From Escherichia phage Ptacy1479, in sequence record PQ863256.1: a stretch of 64,000 bases of DNA. One strand, given 5' to 3'. Below, piece after piece: positions 8,727 to 48,264 of this stretch (position 1 is its first letter; each line of letters begins with the position of its first letter). The position numbers and the translations under genes are program-made. The notes below the pieces were generated by a model, which had not been told where the DNA came from, made no database searches, and was given only the letters and a program-made list of their open reading frames with translations.

Positions 8727-8735
8727 TAATGTATA
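8727..8735 (+). promoter_or_regulatory. TAATGTATA phage promoter-like element, 33 nt upstream of ATG 8769
   Basis: exact 9-mer recurring upstream of several genes; recalled as the phiEco32-type middle/late promoter motif (unverified). Confidence 0.5.
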
Positions 8736-36317: not shown

Positions 36318-38162
36318 TTAGTGCGTATGCATCCAGTTGAGTCCAATCTGACAATCAGAGGCCAGAGGACATTCCATGTTCAAGTACTCACCCGCTTTCT
36401 TAACACAAAGCTCAGTGTGTTCTTTGAGTTTCTGTACATCATTACGATTCACTGAGAATTGGCCCTCATCATGCATATCAATTACCTTAGCACAACGAAC
36501 CCCATCCCTCTCAATCCACTTGTTTAGGAACATCATAGCATATTTCATAACAACAGCACCAGCACATTGCAGTAGAGTGTTAAGTGCTTTATGAACCATA
36601 ACCTTACCAGTGGCATCTCGTCTCATTGTAATCTTACGACCATCAACACCAATCAAGTATCCTTGAGCAGCTTTCTCTGTCATACGATCAATGAGGATTG
36701 CAATACATGGGTTCTCTGCCAAGAAACGTGCTCGCATCACTGAACCTTCTTCAGCCCCACCACCTACAATTGAACCAAGCTTAGCGTCGCCAGCACCGTA
36801 GTTGAATGCATAGATAAATGTTTTAGCGTTGTCACGAGTAGGAAGACCAGCAAGTTTCTGGTTATGGGAGTGGATATCACCTTCAAGGAGAATATCACGA
36901 TACATAATAGCAGAAGCTAAACCACGTTCTGCCAGAGCTTTCTTAGCCGGATTGTTCTCTTCAATTGCCTCAGCAAGCATATCTCTACACTCTTTAATGA
37001 GGTAGTGAGCGAGCATACGAAGTTCAAGTCCAGAACCATCATACCCTAAGAATACTTCTTTACCAGCGGGTATGTAATATTTGTAAGCACCTACAGGTTT
37101 GTCTTTCTTCCTCGGCTTACCTTTCTCATAAATTACGTTAGTACCTTTTCGTATATAACAACCATCAGGAACAACGTTAGTAATAACGAAAGGACGAGAA
37201 TGATCACTGTCTGAGTTATAGTCAGACTCAAACAAACTGCGACACTCGTGACCAAACAAACCACGGGAGGGAATATTAACCACGATACGATGTTTGAATC
37301 GAAAAGTTGGCGTAGCGCAGCTGTTAGCTTCTGCCGAAAGTTTACCATCTTCGCGTTCCTTTGCTATGAGTCCACTGATAAGACCTAGCCTGTGAGCCGC
37401 TACAACGCGTCTCTTAAGCAAACTTCCGACACTCCCTAGATCACCCCCTAGCCCCTCTTCAAGAGTCTCCTCGAGGTTTGTAGGAGCTGTAGGCCACTTA
37501 TTTGATGTGGCTAGTGCTTTCTTAATCTCATCAAACGTTACAGGATTACGGCGATTAGGGTTCAATCCCAAACCAAATACGTAAGCCTTCATATAGTTCT
37601 TAGTTTTAAACCTGAAATGCTTTTCTAAGAACTTCTTAATATCAGCGTCAACCATCTCGGCTGTCTGCTTTTGCTTAGCATTGCCTCTCATCCAAGCAGT
37701 ATACCATGCTTGGTATGTTCCATACTTTCGCATATCTTTCTTAATTTCGAAAGTATTCCAAGGTTTCTTAGATACGTTAAACTCTGGAGGAAGAAAGCCC
37801 TCATCCATAAGAGCCTCTTTAACTCGTGCATCTTTCGATGGGTCAAAGTCTACGTATTCGACACAGGTGAATGCTCCACCAATATCTTCTCTCTTCAGCC
37901 CAACCCTATCACAATAGGCTTGAGGCCACTTCTGTAAAGCTCCAGACTTCTTAAACGGCTTCATGTAAGTAGAGCCATCTAATCTCATCTTAGGTAAGAG
38001 AGGAATCAACTCTCTGTCAATATTAACAATAATCTCTTTAAGGAGGTGAACATACCACCGAGCATTTCTTCGGTTGAAACTCACTCCGTGCTTTGCTTGC
38101 TTAGAGATTATATCAGCGACAGTCATCTCTGTCAAAAATGGAAGAGCGTCCGGGTTGCTCAC
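36318..38162 (-). CDS. DNA polymerase, family A, polymerase domain only
   Basis: motif A DGSGLELRMLAHY, motif B RDNAKTFIYAFNYG, motif C VIDMHDEGQF; no exonuclease motifs in this ORF. Confidence 0.8.
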   Translation of the reverse strand: MSNPDALPFLTEMTVADIISKQAKHGVSFNRRNARWYVHLLKEIIVNIDRELIPLLPKMRLDGSTYMKPFKKSGALQKWPQAYCDRVGLKREDIGGAFTCVEYVDFDPSKDARVKEALMDEGFLPPEFNVSKKPWNTFEIKKDMRKYGTYQAWYTAWMRGNAKQKQTAEMVDADIKKFLEKHFRFKTKNYMKAYVFGLGLNPNRRNPVTFDEIKKALATSNKWPTAPTNLEETLEEGLGGDLGSVGSLLKRRVVAAHRLGLISGLIAKEREDGKLSAEANSCATPTFRFKHRIVVNIPSRGLFGHECRSLFESDYNSDSDHSRPFVITNVVPDGCYIRKGTNVIYEKGKPRKKDKPVGAYKYYIPAGKEVFLGYDGSGLELRMLAHYLIKECRDMLAEAIEENNPAKKALAERGLASAIMYRDILLEGDIHSHNQKLAGLPTRDNAKTFIYAFNYGAGDAKLGSIVGGGAEEGSVMRARFLAENPCIAILIDRMTEKAAQGYLIGVDGRKITMRRDATGKVMVHKALNTLLQCAGAVVMKYAMMFLNKWIERDGVRCAKVIDMHDEGQFSVNRNDVQKLKEHTELCVKKAGEYLNMECPLASDCQIGLNWMHTH

Positions 38163-39869: not shown

Positions 39870-39878
39870 TATACATTA
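39870..39878 (-). promoter_or_regulatory. TAATGTATA promoter-like element, 36 nt upstream of ATG 39833
   Basis: exact 9-mer on - strand. Confidence 0.5.
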
Positions 39879-42637: not shown

Positions 42638-43294
42638 TTAAATCTCCAATGTTTTCTTCAGAGCTGCCCACGAGATTGGGTAGATCTTAGTCATCTCTTC
42701 GTCTACAGATTTAGCAAACACTCGAACTTCATATTGAGCGTGAGAGGAGAGTCGCTGACGACACAACTCAAACCAGCCATACAAAGAACCGGTCCACACC
42801 CACTCAGTGATCATCCCCTGAGGAAGAACAAATCGAGCTTGCTCTGGTGCAATAAATTCAATCAACTTGTCATATGCTGCTAGAGAAGCTTCATATGCAT
42901 CATTAATCAGCATTAATGCTTCAGCTCGTTCTCCGTCGATGAGTTGAATCCCTGAACCTGCATGGAGGTCCGAAGGTCTCGCAAAAATCTCTTTAGGGAT
43001 GAAGACTTCAACTGCTCCATCTTTATACCGCCGGGACATTTCGTTCCACGAGAATCCAACCTGATGCTTGCCCAACTGTCTCGCAATTGCGATAGGTGCT
43101 TTGCATCGGAAACTGACTTGCGGGTGTCGGAATGGGGTAACATGCTTCTCTCTTGCGAGGAAGTTGATGAGACGTTCATCACGTTCATTTAAATCACCTT
43201 CACGGGTTACGCCAAAGGAAACTCGAGCTGCGTTTACTACGCTACGATCACTTCCCATAGCTTCGATTAATGTTGCTTGTAATTGTTCATTCAT
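42638..43294 (-). CDS. thyX: flavin-dependent thymidylate synthase ThyX-like, with KHQ in place of the RHR signature
   Basis: ThyX-like along its length (ARVSF, KAPIAIARQ, SHAQYEVR) but RHRX7S position reads KHQX8S. Confidence 0.65.
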   Translation of the reverse strand: MNEQLQATLIEAMGSDRSVVNAARVSFGVTREGDLNERDERLINFLAREKHVTPFRHPQVSFRCKAPIAIARQLGKHQVGFSWNEMSRRYKDGAVEVFIPKEIFARPSDLHAGSGIQLIDGERAEALMLINDAYEASLAAYDKLIEFIAPEQARFVLPQGMITEWVWTGSLYGWFELCRQRLSSHAQYEVRVFAKSVDEEMTKIYPISWAALKKTLEI

Positions 43295-44037: not shown

Positions 44038-44601
44038 TTAGTAAGACACGTCGCCACTTGAATGGGACATGTTGCTCTTGACGAAGTAGCAATACTTGCC
44101 AAGACCTTCATTAATTTCTTGAAGCATACTCTGATCGACAGGGTAGGATGCTAAATCGCCATCAAACTCATCCATCTTCTCAATAATACACATCAAGGTC
44201 ATGCACATATCAGAGAGCATACCGTCCATGTCTAGATCAGCATTACCCTCTGAAAACCAAGCATGGGAGAGGTAGTTAGCCGCTGTAGCATCCACCTTAA
44301 CACAGTGATATCGCATACGTTCAGCAATACGATCTCCTACTTGTCGTGCGTAATCTTCCATCTCATCAAACATACCATGAACACCCTGAAATCCTGCACC
44401 AGAGACGTTCCAGTGGTAGTTTTTAGCTTTGATATGCAAGAGTTCCATGTTAGCTTGTAAGCAGCTCAGGATGTGTTCTAGGCTGTTTCCACTAATCATA
44501 CCCTGCATTGTTTCAAGGCGAGAGATTGAAAGCTCAGACCGGTCTAACACACTATAGCTGTCACGACCAATCTCAGGTAAATCAAAAACATTCTTATGCA
44601 T
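44038..44601 (-). CDS. dps: Dps-family ferritin-like protein (start revised to Met17)
   Basis: KAKNYHWNVSGAGFQGVHGMFDE...DRIAER with ferroxidase-position His, His, Asp, Glu conserved. Confidence 0.7.
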   Translation of the reverse strand: MHKNVFDLPEIGRDSYSVLDRSELSISRLETMQGMISGNSLEHILSCLQANMELLHIKAKNYHWNVSGAGFQGVHGMFDEMEDYARQVGDRIAERMRYHCVKVDATAANYLSHAWFSEGNADLDMDGMLSDMCMTLMCIIEKMDEFDGDLASYPVDQSMLQEINEGLGKYCYFVKSNMSHSSGDVSY

Positions 44602-44923
44602 TTGGGTTTTCTCCATCAAGTTCAACTGAATTAGCAACATTACGTGCAATATTATCCATTACCTGCTGGGTAATTACGATGCAGTTCTGCGGGTCTACTG
44701 ACTTAGAACGCCCCATTTCAGGGTCATACACCTTAACTCGTTTAGCAGTTGAACCTGTAACCTGAAGAACCTTCAATAGATATCCCTGATTACCAATAGA
44801 CCAAGCAACAACATCACGATTCTTGATAAAGCGACCAAGCATATCACGATGATAAAACTGTTGCATCACCTTGGATTTTGTAATCTCTTCAGTGGGCGGG
44901 GCCACTTTACTCAAATCTAACAT
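44594..44923 (-). CDS. hypothetical protein
   Basis: AATGTATA-containing element about 39 nt upstream; 109 aa. Confidence 0.5.
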   Translation of the reverse strand: MLDLSKVAPPTEEITKSKVMQQFYHRDMLGRFIKNRDVVAWSIGNQGYLLKVLQVTGSTAKRVKVYDPEMGRSKSVDPQNCIVITQQVMDNIARNVANSVELDGENPNA

Positions 44924-44995: not shown

Positions 44996-45205
44996 TCAGT
45001 AGTAAATTACTTTAGACATAAAAGAACCCGAGCTAGGGTCTTCGTACCAGCGATGAATGTCAGCACTTTTAACAGTTCCTATTAGAGCTTTCACATTCTT
45101 TTTAGCGACACGAGCCTCTTTGCGAGTGTTAAACAGTTTGATATTATCTTTACCTAAGTGTTGTTTCTGTTCCCAAACAACACGAACAGCCCACATCTTT
45201 TTCAT
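44996..45205 (-). CDS. small basic protein, tandem paralog 1
   Basis: 69 aa; TRKEARVAKK motif. Confidence 0.5.
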   Translation of the reverse strand: MKKMWAVRVVWEQKQHLGKDNIKLFNTRKEARVAKKNVKALIGTVKSADIHRWYEDPSSGSFMSKVIYY

Positions 45206-45414
45206 TAGTAATGTACCTTTCCGCTGATATAAATACGACCAGAGGAATACTCCTTGGCCTTATGGATACTAATGCTCTTAGTTAAGTCCATATTGAACAT
45301 AGACTTTTTAAAATCTCGAGCTTGTTGACGGGTGGGCAGTGCAGTCATAGTCATACCACCTGATGCCCACTTAATCTTCGCTAACCAGAACTGTCTCATG
45401 GTGATTGGTCTCAT
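45205..45414 (-). CDS. small basic protein, tandem paralog 2
   Basis: 69 aa; TRQQARDFKK motif. Confidence 0.5.
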   Translation of the reverse strand: MRPITMRQFWLAKIKWASGGMTMTALPTRQQARDFKKSMFNMDLTKSISIHKAKEYSSGRIYISGKVHY

Positions 45415-45611
45415 TAATAATAAACCTTACTATTTGCCATAAAAGCACCTTCGCTATTCATGAAAGCTTTACCAATACTAACCTTGTTAAGTCTAAAAGT
45501 AGACTTGTATTGATTTTTGACCCTACGTGCGTGCTCTCGAGTATTAACAAAATCTACAGCTACCAACTCTCCAGACGTGTTATCATGTACACGAACAATC
45601 CACTTTTTCAT
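45414..45611 (-). CDS. small basic protein, tandem paralog 3
   Basis: 65 aa; TREHARRVKN motif. Confidence 0.5.
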   Translation of the reverse strand: MKKWIVRVHDNTSGELVAVDFVNTREHARRVKNQYKSTFRLNKVSIGKAFMNSEGAFMANSKVYY

Positions 45612-45835
45612 TTTACTAAACCCTTCATATAATCATAAAGATCATTAGAGGCTTTACCCCATTCAAGGTGCTTCTTATCCATATAACTCTTACAGGCTTC
45701 TTTACTGCTCTCAACGCATATATCAAATTGATGACATGCTCGACCAAAAGTTATAGCTTTTAACTGAACTTCGGTAGTTAAACCTTTAAGCTCTTGAAAC
45801 TCTTCTTCAGTCATTTTACACACCTTTGGATGCAA
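45608..45835 (-). CDS. hypothetical small protein
   Basis: 75 aa track ORF. Confidence 0.4.
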   Translation of the reverse strand: MHPKVCKMTEEEFQELKGLTTEVQLKAITFGRACHQFDICVESSKEACKSYMDKKHLEWGKASNDLYDYMKGLVK

Positions 45836-46349
45836 CTACACCTTCAGAGTTATTATAACGACCCTTCACTGCATAGGAATCATCACCAGCGTGAGAGTGT
45901 TCAAACATAACCATTTGACCAACACGCATCCCAGCACGAACTCGTAAGCTGTGGTGCTTGGTTACGTTGTGGAATTCAAATGTCAGCTTACTACTATTAA
46001 ATCCTGCATCAGCCCAACCGGCATGGAGGTGGTTCAGGCCACAACGAGCCATAGATGAACGCAGAACAAATAGACTTGAGATATTATCTGGAAGATTAAA
46101 CTCCTCCATAGAGTGAGCCAAGAAGAACTGACCCGGAGTGATAACCAAACCCTCTTCAGGAATCTTTACTTCCTTCCACTGAAGATTCTCTTTCGCATCA
46201 ATATCAACGATGCCATCAGCCTGTTCTTCAACAAGGATAGTATCACCAATACGGATATCCACACTAGCAGCGTTAACATACTTATGCTCCGCATCCAGAT
46301 AGCCATTGTCAATTACATCATGCAGTTCAATACTTCCTAGTAAACTCAT
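45816..46349 (-). CDS. dcd: dCTP deaminase (dUTPase superfamily)
   Basis: HAGWADAGFNSSKLTFEFHN...GMRVGQMVMF pattern. Confidence 0.75.
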   Translation of the reverse strand: MSLLGSIELHDVIDNGYLDAEHKYVNAASVDIRIGDTILVEEQADGIVDIDAKENLQWKEVKIPEEGLVITPGQFFLAHSMEEFNLPDNISSLFVLRSSMARCGLNHLHAGWADAGFNSSKLTFEFHNVTKHHSLRVRAGMRVGQMVMFEHSHAGDDSYAVKGRYNNSEGVVASKGV

Positions 46350-46361
46350 TCTTTTTCCTTA

Positions 46362-47708
46362 TTAGCGAATGTTTTGTGAATTTATTAAGTGGTCCAGTTC
46401 TCCACCAACCTGAGGCTCTAATACTTCAGGATTGTTGGCAACAAACCGATCAGCGAGACTGCGGCTGACAGTCTCAGCAAGTTCGTCATGAGAAGGAGTA
46501 TCAAGATCGGAGAGACTACCTACCACATCTTGAGCCACGCCTTCATCAGTCCAGATAACACGAGAAGGGGCGTTGATATCACCAACAGCGAAACCTTGAC
46601 CAGAGAACTGGTGACGGCTAACAGTAAAACCATTTGATCGACCACGAGAAGGACTAGATATCCATCTCTCCATAGAATCCCTTGTAATACCAAGAGCTTC
46701 TTCAAAAGATGTTCTACGAGTAGGGCTTTCTCTTCGTGACTCTTGTGCTCGACGCATTGCAGGGGCTACAAACACCCCTTCAATTGCATTGTGTCGGTTA
46801 GGTTCTTCCCGACCAAGCAGATCACCACCCGTGTTGGTTGTTAAGTTTGTCAACCCTTCAGACCAATATGCTCTTATCTGACTAGAGCCATGAACACTTG
46901 ACATTAACTGAATCTCTTCATAAGGGATTCCAAAGAATCGACTCATGTCACGATTAACACAATACTGAGCACTTGTTGTGTCCTCAATAAGAGCAACCTG
47001 ACCTCGTTCGTTGACCAGATGACTAACTGGTTGAGGTGTGGGAAGGTATCGAGTTTGGGCCATGTATTGATGTGCAGCTGCTGGAGAGGAAAATCTCAAC
47101 ACTTGCGAGTTAGGCCACTTCTTGTGAACATACCTGATTTCACGACTAGAAACAACCACTGGACAAGGGGCGGTCATAGCCAAATATCCATGAGAAGTCA
47201 TGAATAAGTTGTCAAGAGTCATCGCACCACGACACATCATAGGAAAATTATCCAATACCTCTTCAATAGAAGTAGGATAATTAAACATGAATTGGATACG
47301 AACCCCATTCCACTGAAACTCAATAATATCAGTGAATGTTAATTGAGAACTCCCAGCATAGGATTCGTTTGTAGCTTCAGCAAGAAGGGATGCATATTCA
47401 ACATCTTGTGACTCTAGCCATTCCTTCACATTACTTTCAATCTCTCTTCCAAGAGCTTGCCAACGATCAGTTGGGACGAAAGTATTTTGAGTTCTTGGTG
47501 TTTGTCCTCTGACAATAAAGATATCAATGTCATGTGGAGCTGTGTTATTAAGCACAGCATCACGAACAGCCCCACCAGTAATGATGGGACAGATACCGTC
47601 TGGAACTAAATTGTTGTTAATCAACTGTTCAATGAAGTGACGACCAACAGTGATATCAGGTTGTTGAGCAACCTTATCTTCAATTTGGTTAATCGGGATA
47701 ACAATCAT
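46362..47708 (-). CDS. nucleotidyltransferase with CCA-adding / poly(A) polymerase-type head domain (start revised to Met20)
   Basis: IITGGAVRDAVL...HDIDIFI matches GGxVRD...DxD head motif; C-terminal half Ser/Arg-rich, unassigned. Confidence 0.55.
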   Translation of the reverse strand: MIVIPINQIEDKVAQQPDITVGRHFIEQLINNNLVPDGICPIITGGAVRDAVLNNTAPHDIDIFIVRGQTPRTQNTFVPTDRWQALGREIESNVKEWLESQDVEYASLLAEATNESYAGSSQLTFTDIIEFQWNGVRIQFMFNYPTSIEEVLDNFPMMCRGAMTLDNLFMTSHGYLAMTAPCPVVVSSREIRYVHKKWPNSQVLRFSSPAAAHQYMAQTRYLPTPQPVSHLVNERGQVALIEDTTSAQYCVNRDMSRFFGIPYEEIQLMSSVHGSSQIRAYWSEGLTNLTTNTGGDLLGREEPNRHNAIEGVFVAPAMRRAQESRRESPTRRTSFEEALGITRDSMERWISSPSRGRSNGFTVSRHQFSGQGFAVGDINAPSRVIWTDEGVAQDVVGSLSDLDTPSHDELAETVSRSLADRFVANNPEVLEPQVGGELDHLINSQNIR

Positions 47709-47709
47709 T

Positions 47710-48264
47710 TTACATTTTCCAATATAATGAAGGTGGGTCGTAAGGGTCAAATCCCGTGAGTTCACACAAGAAAAGATAAACCTTAACAGTTAAGTTAACG
47801 TCCTGTTCACAATAAGTAAACATATCTTCAGTGAAAGCATCCCATGCTTCCTCTTGCTCACCGTAATCACCTTTAAGTTCCTCTAAGAACTCACCCCATT
47901 GCTTCAAACCATGACCTCTTGGGCCACGTCTAGGGTCGCCTTTCGGGTACTCAGGACTGTCACCAATACGGTCAGGTTTAAGATATCGACTAAGACATAA
48001 AGTGTCAAAGACGTTAAAATGATATTTAATCAAAGAAGGATACATCTTCTTCAGAGCAGGTAAGTCGAAGTCAATGATATTATGACCAACGAGCACATCA
48101 GCTTCTGTAAGTTTACGAATCCCATCTTCAATTTGGTGAGGCCGATAGCCCCACCTTTCACCAGATTCAACATCGAAGATATAAATACACCATACTCTAG
48201 TTATGTCATCGTACAGTGCATTACTCTCGATATCAAATGCAAACACTTTCTTTTTCTTTACCAC
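47710..48264 (-). CDS. 3'-5' exonuclease (DnaQ-like), stand-alone proofreading domain
   Basis: FDIES (Exo I), GHNIIDFD (Exo II), YCEQD (Exo III). Confidence 0.7.

Follow-up and report, generated by a model that had tools for sequence, protein, structure and literature searches.

The window analysed here is a stretch of 64,000 nucleotides from Escherichia phage Ptacy1479 (PQ863256.1), and on its minus strand, at 46362-47708, lies the open reading frame (ORF) of 448 amino acids plus stop that an initial annotation of the sequence had placed there and that encodes a nucleotidyltransferase (NTase). The catalytic head of this protein is, as judged from its predicted structure, of the class II type, that of the tRNA nucleotidyltransferases and poly(A) polymerases. 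The explanation favoured here, with a probability of roughly 0.4, is that the NTase is an active, lineage-specific, class-II-derived enzyme of the Pol-beta superfamily which carries out template-independent nucleotide addition to the 3' end of a nucleic acid. Such an enzyme would have descended from the class II branch of the superfamily (that of the PolyA_pol head), would bind a nucleoside triphosphate (NTP) or deoxynucleoside triphosphate (dNTP) with two Mg2+ ions, and would transfer the nucleotide, template-free, onto the 3'-OH of a nucleic-acid end. A nucleic-acid end is the likeliest acceptor because the closest folds are, by a clear margin, those of enzymes acting on polynucleotide 3' ends, and RNA would be a likelier acceptor than DNA because these are the folds of CCA-adding enzymes and of poly(A) polymerase I. 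The tagging of RNA, which the initial annotation had also raised, is possible.

The catalytic head is recognised by its motif A (IITGGAVRDAVLNNTAPHDIDIFIV, residues 42-66; 47511-47585, minus strand), the motif A of class II enzymes. The GGxVRD…DxD pattern noticed earlier in the translation is thereby confirmed, as the signature GGAVRD-x9-DID at residues 45-62 contains the GG helix cap, R49, D50 and the catalytic D60 and D62. An alignment of 25 diverse members of the family, whose mutual identity is 22-33%, leaves G45, G46, R49, D50, D60, D62, F64, Y117, I128, Q139, P156, Y193 and K197 invariant, and position 127 is D or E in every one of them. D127 (codon at 47328-47330, minus strand) stands at the start of a modelled strand, residues 125-133, and is the putative counterpart of the third catalytic carboxylate of class II enzymes. 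A Pol-beta-like NTase fold, in which helices pack on a mixed beta-sheet, a Gly-rich helix cap and a carboxylate triad (with D127 as its putative third member), by which the Pol-beta superfamily is known, were all found. Motif A lies in a conserved catalytic core, residues 1-210 (47079-47708, minus strand), which stands out by homologue coverage, by a predicted local distance difference test score (pLDDT) above 90 and by a low ratio of nonsynonymous to synonymous substitution (dN/dS 0.10). The core comprises the head and the first neck-like helices, including a R-[DE]-x-x-Y-x-x-K-K-x-P motif at 189-199; the neck-like helix that comes after the head is basic (R189, K196, K197). Judged by these residues, the NTase is probably a real and active enzyme.

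Sequence ties the NTase to class II enzymes weakly and locally, whereas structure does so clearly, so far as a predicted model can tell. Motif A is the sole stretch of the NTase that aligns by sequence with class II enzymes. The Pfam PolyA_pol head (PF01743) matches residues 43-126 over profile positions 3-84 of 126 (E 5e-4, 20.9 bits), and the same match is obtained at E <= 0.01 in only four of the 25 family members. Searched singly against the sequences of the PDB, the NTase matched nothing relevant, while the 25-member profile reached the CCA-adding enzyme 6ibp (E 1.6e-3). Aligned by hhalign with a class II reference of eight sequences (E. coli Cca, E. coli PcnB, five phage enzymes and one archaeal-virus enzyme), the family matched (E 6.7e-5, probability 64%) in the vicinity of motif A, over some 62 columns; against E. 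coli Cca or PcnB taken singly, only motif A or noise was returned. An AlphaFold model built from 18 Kuravirus-only sequences was unusable (mean pLDDT 38) and was replaced by a model from the 25-sequence diverse alignment, in which 217 residues have a pLDDT above 90 and the fold is confident from residue 1 to about 290. When this model was compared with the PDB by Foldseek, the 43 highest-ranking matches (best E 4.8e-5) all belonged to poly(A) polymerase I or to class II tRNA nucleotidyltransferases. The head is therefore, in the model, of class II type. Profile search and structure prediction, the checks that had been proposed for a phage enzyme with a class II nucleotidyltransferase head, thus agree with that claim, as do the invariant catalytic residues, and the fold does not fall in some unrelated NTase class, the outcome that had been named as speaking against it.

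The head is not accompanied by the other defining parts of these enzymes. The RRD motif B (R90, R91, D92) and the EDxxR motif D (E130, D131, R134) are invariant in all eight reference enzymes. The former serves in ribose recognition and discrimination and the latter is the amino-acid template that chooses CTP or ATP. The NTase has no RRD, as the stretch that is equivalent by the order of secondary structures (..VLDNFPMMCRGAM..) shows no conserved R-R-D across the family, and EDxxR is found neither in the NTase nor in the 25-member alignment; the profile-profile alignment with class II ends before both regions. Likewise, the body and tail domains that bind tRNA are missing, and the superposition on class II enzymes, which have 344-415 residues, extends over only 161-169. 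The protein also failed the test for a poly(A) polymerase I of the PcnB type, defined by head and neck, body, leg and a basic C-terminal RNA-binding region. Hence, the earlier assignment to the CCA-adding or poly(A) polymerase type stands for the catalytic head and fails at the Pfam threshold and the other defining parts; by the tests run, the NTase is not a CCA-adding enzyme. With RRD and EDxxR missing, neither CCA specificity nor strict use of ribonucleotides can be assumed, and the specificity for nucleotide and sugar is not predictable.

The C-terminal half, which the initial annotation had treated as one unassigned block of about 300 residues, consists of several parts, since the confident fold reaches about residue 290 and only residues 291-448 are of low confidence. 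Residues 211-290 (46839-47078, minus strand) form a lineage-specific folded extension of helices and a W282-S-E-G-L motif (pLDDT 70-94); they have no Pfam or PDB sequence match, and most long-tailed members of the family have this motif in the form [WY]-[ST]-x-G-[LR]. The tail, residues 291-448 (46365-46838, minus strand), has a pLDDT of 25-63 with two weak helices. Among seven Kuravirus genes, dN/dS rises from 0.10 in the core to 0.21 in residues 211-290 and 0.33 in the tail, where indels affect 44 of the 144 alignment columns. A dN/dS of 0.33 despite the indels, together with the low pLDDT, indicates that the tail is coding, constrained and probably disordered. Its conserved islands are SFEEALGIT..S.ERW, QFSGQGF and LADRFVANNPEVLEPQ, and its last 15-22 residues are variable. 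The tail was correctly noted as rich in Ser and Arg (10.8% each), but it is rich in Gly and Glu as well, and with a net charge of -7 it is not basic.

No homologue of the tail was found outside Kuravirus in a library of 1.84 billion proteins. The tails of other members, surveyed in the alignment from window residue 272 onward, are unrelated sequences which extend from about 60 to 274 residues past the core and consist to 34-52% of S/T/N/G/Q/P. Isolated Trp residues in a polar S/T/N/R/G context are common in them (2.5% W, up to five per tail; the tail of the window NTase has two, W349 and W388), and the last residue of several members is W, F or Y, for example ..WREVW, ..IRWQW, ..GGWTF, ..TTWDW and ..SEYDF. 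The Trp residues of the tails may thus represent short binding motifs, and the conserved tail motifs would most likely tether the NTase to a partner or substrate. Within Kuravirus itself two unrelated C-terminal endings occur, ..EPQVGGELDHLINSQNIR in the window and Paul and ..EPQTRTVRFADEAGRGISFDMETNN in phiEco32, SU10 and most others, so that the window allele has the rarer ending, ...VGGELDHLINSQNIR. Comparison of window positions 46362-46430 (minus strand) with L001 7240-7314 found plain DNA divergence between the endings and no frameshift.

The gene belongs to a phiEco32-like coliphage of the genus Kuravirus, and it is already catalogued. The DNA of the locus is 90-94% identical to that of phages Paul, SU10, 1-6bf and some 95 more records, nearly all of them Escherichia or Shigella phages. 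The NTase is 82-94% identical to Kuravirus proteins labelled 'nucleotidyltransferase' (phiEco32 gp73, SU10 gp74, NJ01_088), with 82.5-84.5% amino acid identity to the product of phiEco32 gene 73, of which it is the orthologue, and it belongs to PHROG 12715, whose profile spans residues 1-434 (E 3.2e-248). The phiEco32 RefSeq record (Gordonclarkvirinae, Kuravirus) places this 'nucleotidyltransferase' gene between gp74, 'DNA polymerase exonuclease subunit', and gp72, 'dCTP deaminase'; the reading of the initial annotation therefore repeats an existing one. With annotation in about 100 Kuravirus-type genomes, a PHROG of its own and a possible role pointed out in print by the BASEL-II authors, the gene itself is no discovery. 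A search of NCBIfam with the NTase gave zero matches. Most Kuravirus orthologues, P0001 and P0002 included, carry a precomputed Pfam label, PF26128.2, which could not be reproduced or identified: a Pfam-A search of the same orthologues gives PolyA_pol only, and the accession appears in no paper found. The start of the gene is well placed at the ATG at 47708, since the N-terminal M-I-x-I-P is kept in distant homologues (about 25% identity) and only 1 nt separates this ATG from the TAA that ends the exonuclease gene upstream; given this conserved N-terminus, a longer ORF starting with GTG at 47765 is not needed.

The family is small. A HMMER scan of the 1.84 billion representative proteins, a library clustered at 50% identity, returned 32 clusters at E <= 1e-3, and nearly all of them cover the query from residue 1 to about 210-300. 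The second homologue search, with the diverse alignment, gave mostly Kuravirus proteins and three new distant members (P0075-P0077). The order primase/helicase, exonuclease, NTase and dCTP deaminase recurs in every context examined, that is in phiEco32, KBNP1711, ECBP2, two IMG/VR contigs (82 and 88 kb) and Logan contigs of 18-71 kb; four metagenomic phage contigs share it with the three named phages. All of these contexts are phages of one broad type, Gordonclarkvirinae-type contigs only. Outside the family, the nearest viral predicted structures are the NTases of podophages phiAS7, PS3, VEN and LKD16, of 186-215 residues, and the profile of PHROG 1614 matches residues 34-156 of the window NTase (E 4e-8). 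One such protein, LKD16 ORF16 (L018 9703-10302; 199 amino acids, PHROG 1614), lies between a DNA helicase and a DNA ligase and is annotated 'hypothetical protein'.

The replication operon is highly conserved except for the NTase, the single gene in it that evolves fast. Amino acid identity to phiEco32 is 99.5% for the primase/helicase, 97.3% for the exonuclease and 97.7% for the dCTP deaminase, and 84.5% for the NTase. The corresponding values for KBNP1711 are 94.5%, 84.6% and 94.9% against 34.9% (41% in the core), and for ECBP2 93.6%, 78.6% and 94.4% against 32.4%; KBNP1711 and ECBP2 compared with each other show the same pattern, with a divergent NTase and conserved neighbours. Nucleotide identity, 80-90% in the flanks, drops to 30-60% exactly between 47708 and 46349. 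Against KBNP1711, the dN of the NTase core is 0.60 and that of the neighbours 0.024-0.094, at a dS of 0.8-1.5 throughout, a contrast which is compatible with vertical descent at about 6-25 times the rate of the neighbours. However, since dS approaches saturation even in the flanks, the data do not tell fast vertical evolution from cassette replacement by recombination. The NTase behaves like an accessory gene of the conflict type, and yet it is present in all relatives examined and is constrained within the genus. Because it evolves so much faster than its neighbours, the pattern suggests that the NTase would meet a variable host factor, in takeover or counter-defence, rather than being a fixed part of the replisome. 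This behaviour, in a tiny family private to one lineage of restriction-resistant phages, is part of what makes the gene worth attention.

The operon is a tightly packed, same-strand string of replication and nucleotide-metabolism genes. The NTase is preceded on the minus strand by the primase/helicase (gp75; 48258-50048; Pfam DnaB_C and Toprim, and phiEco32 annotation), the first of the conserved four genes, and by the DNA polymerase 3'-5' exonuclease subunit (gp74; 47710-48264; Pfam DNA_pol_A_exo1, E 1.3e-8, and PHROG). It is followed by the dCTP deaminase (gp72; 45816-46349, minus strand; Pfam DCD, E 3.6e-34, and PHROG), which starts 12 nt beyond the NTase stop. The family A DNA polymerase of the phage is split, its polymerase-domain protein (36318-38162, minus strand) lying about 9.5 kb from the exonuclease subunit, and it is split likewise in distant relatives. 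ThyX is encoded at 42638-43294 (minus strand; Pfam Thy1, E 1e-43) and a Dps/ferritin-like protein at 44038-44649. The promoter element described for phiEco32 gp36 has the consensus tAATGTAtA (PMC8948821). Exact copies lie in the window at 8727, 24107, 33480, 33552 and 39870, and matches with one mismatch occur at chance level. None stands on the minus strand upstream of the NTase within the window, where the nearest minus-strand copy, at 39870, is downstream; the gene is thus presumably read from promoters farther upstream.

Two further groups of genes were observed in the surroundings. Three tandem small ORFs of 69, 69 and 65 amino acids (44996-45611, minus strand; phiEco32 gp69-71) all end in ..Y or ..YY and have no Pfam match; the first and third are paralogous (E 0.002, 32% identical along their full length), and the middle one appears similar by eye. 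Upstream of the primase/helicase, at 50100-54600 (minus strand), a conserved set comprises genes for a GATase-domain protein, an ATP-grasp/RimK-like protein (397 amino acids, without a Pfam match in the window) and a GGACT/gamma-glutamyl cyclotransferase-like protein, and the version of this set in relatives also includes an Amidoligase_2 protein. The set looks like a module for peptide or metabolite modification.

Several points weigh against the reading of the NTase as an enzyme that extends nucleic-acid 3' ends. The likeness in sequence to class II enzymes is confined to about 60 residues near motif A, and the PF01743 score of 20.9 bits falls short of the gathering cut-off of 23. The R-[DE]-x-x-Y-x-x-K-K stretch at 189-197, tried as a counterpart of EDxxRxxRxxRF, paired with it only in a forced hhalign extension of near-zero confidence and was not used. 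The net acidic charge of the tail does not point to nucleic acid being bound by the tail itself, and the low pLDDT by which the tail is called disordered comes from an alignment nearly without depth there. The literature searched held no functional, biochemical or genetic study of this family or of PHROG 1614, and the results do not tell RNA, DNA, small-molecule and protein acceptors apart. The acidity of the core (pI 4.85), considered as an argument against nucleic-acid substrates, was dropped, as the head and neck of true CCA-adding enzymes are equally acidic.

The acceptor may not be a polynucleotide at all. In that case the NTase would turn NTPs into a nucleotide that serves as signal or decoy, or would nucleotidylate (for example, AMPylate) a host protein or small molecule, and this is the foremost of the alternatives, though an unlikely one. 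There is a precedent in the MNT-like phage NTases, as STING effectors are jammed by the cyclic dinucleotides that these enzymes synthesise (Ho et al., bioRxiv 10.1101/2022.06.09.495361), and the very high substitution rate of the NTase relative to its neighbours and the lack of a recognisable nucleic-acid-binding domain beyond the head would both suit such a role. However, the GS...SDxD signature of the MNT-like enzymes differs from GGxVRD...DxD, a PADLOC search gave zero matches for the NTase, and the gene sits in a replication operon and not in an anti-defence island.

A role directed at DNA is somewhat less probable again. The restriction resistance of Gordonclarkvirinae is broad, common to all genera and unexplained in mechanism; for it, the BASEL-II authors suggest a DNA modification that involves the dCTP deaminase and the NTase, with dU-containing DNA as the simplest case (PMC11990801). 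The two proteins might thus install or enable a covalent DNA modification, or the NTase might nucleotidylate DNA ends. The window contains sites for EcoRV (35), EcoRI (9), EcoKI (10) and EcoP1 (106), systems employed in the BASEL work, so a lack of sites does not explain the reported resistance to restriction-modification (RM); every relative has the NTase gene within its replication operon, and the absence of the ribose-discriminating RRD makes the use of dNTPs conceivable. Against this, we know of no DNA base modification that employs a class II-type NTase. The avoidance of palindromes in the window is strong, as is typical of DNA exposed to restriction: 6-bp palindromes occur at 0.60 of the expected number with 14 of 64 absent, those of BamHI and PstI included, CCWGG is found three times where about 75 are expected, and for GATC the count is 142, with about 240-300 expected. 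RM resistance is moreover common to all genera, while their NTases differ by about 65%. Lastly, the phage also encodes ThyX, which with dCTP deaminase forms an ordinary route of dTTP supply; dU-containing DNA is therefore unlikely, contrary to the published suggestion (PMC11990801).

Further down in likelihood, and frankly speculative, is the thought that the NTase is the missing factor in the restriction resistance of Gordonclarkvirinae or, put more broadly, a novel, replisome-linked type of counter-defence enzyme that would nucleotidylate phage DNA, at its ends or its bases, or a component of host defence, with the Trp-studded tail as its targeting module.

The repair of tRNA CCA ends cut off by host defence nucleases, which the initial annotation had offered as an example, was not borne out and is very unlikely. 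The catalytic head is indeed nearest to the CCA-adding enzymes and poly(A) polymerase I, the gene evolves fast in the manner of conflict genes, a defence nuclease that cleaves tRNA 3' tails, Cas12a3, is known (PMC12851939), and RNA repair is the function ascribed to the CCA-adding enzymes that jumbo phages encode (PMC7824862). But the RRD and EDxxR of all eight class II references have no counterpart in the NTase, only about 165 residues superpose with neither body nor tail domain, the Pfam score does not reach the gathering threshold and NCBIfam gives no match. The 64-kb window contains no tRNA gene, and the host already supplies Cca. True CCA-adding enzymes of phages share 40-57% identity with E. 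coli Cca and were found in 423 records, the window NTase not among them; they belong mainly to large phages (Aeh1, phi-pp2, K64-1), mostly of 84-360 kb among the records listed. A search of viral contigs with E. coli Cca as the query found nothing.

The idea of a dead or purely structural NTase, for example a scaffold on the polymerase exonuclease subunit, has in its favour the tight translational coupling with the exonuclease gene, a long tail of the partner-binding type and the one NTase peptide detected in SU10 virion preparations (PMC4281155), but it can hardly be credited, as motif A ligands for metal and NTP that are invariant at 22-33% identity and a core dN/dS of 0.10 are unexpected for a dead enzyme.

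The NTase, for which addition to a nucleic-acid 3' end is favoured, can be compared with four groups of known proteins. With the class II tRNA nucleotidyltransferases and poly(A) polymerase I (PcnB, 3aql; B. stearothermophilus, 1miv; E. coli Cca) it shares the catalytic head. Unlike them, it lacks RRD, EDxxR, body, tail and leg, stays under the Pfam threshold and has no association with tRNA genes, and in place of the body and tail that measure tRNA it has a private extension of 80 residues and a probably disordered tail of 158. It is, in short, a class II head without the specificity apparatus of class II, and its substrate therefore cannot be read from homology with these enzymes. The MNT-like phage NTases (BCP1, Av05) are likewise phage-encoded members of the Pol-beta superfamily, and counter-defence has been proposed for them. 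However, they form another clade, marked by GS-x-AY[GAN]T-x4-SDxD and NP-x-h2[DE] and found in anti-defence neighbourhoods, whereas the window NTase has GGAVRD-x9-DID in place of that signature and lies in a replication operon. Nothing essential separates it from PHROG 12715, of which it is a full-length member in the same gene position. The proteins of PHROG 1614 (LKD16 ORF16, phiAS7, PS3; Autographiviridae and other podophages) are of the same head type, with GGAxRD...DxD as in the NTase, and match it by Foldseek at E 1e-6 to 1e-4 with template modelling (TM) scores of 0.39-0.60 relative to the target. They are shorter (about 190-215 amino acids), have neither the 211-290 extension nor the tail, and resemble the NTase in sequence in motif A only. 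Like the NTase, they are encoded among replication genes, as in the helicase-ligase interval of LKD16, and small NTases with a class II head seem to be a recurring feature of podophage replication modules.

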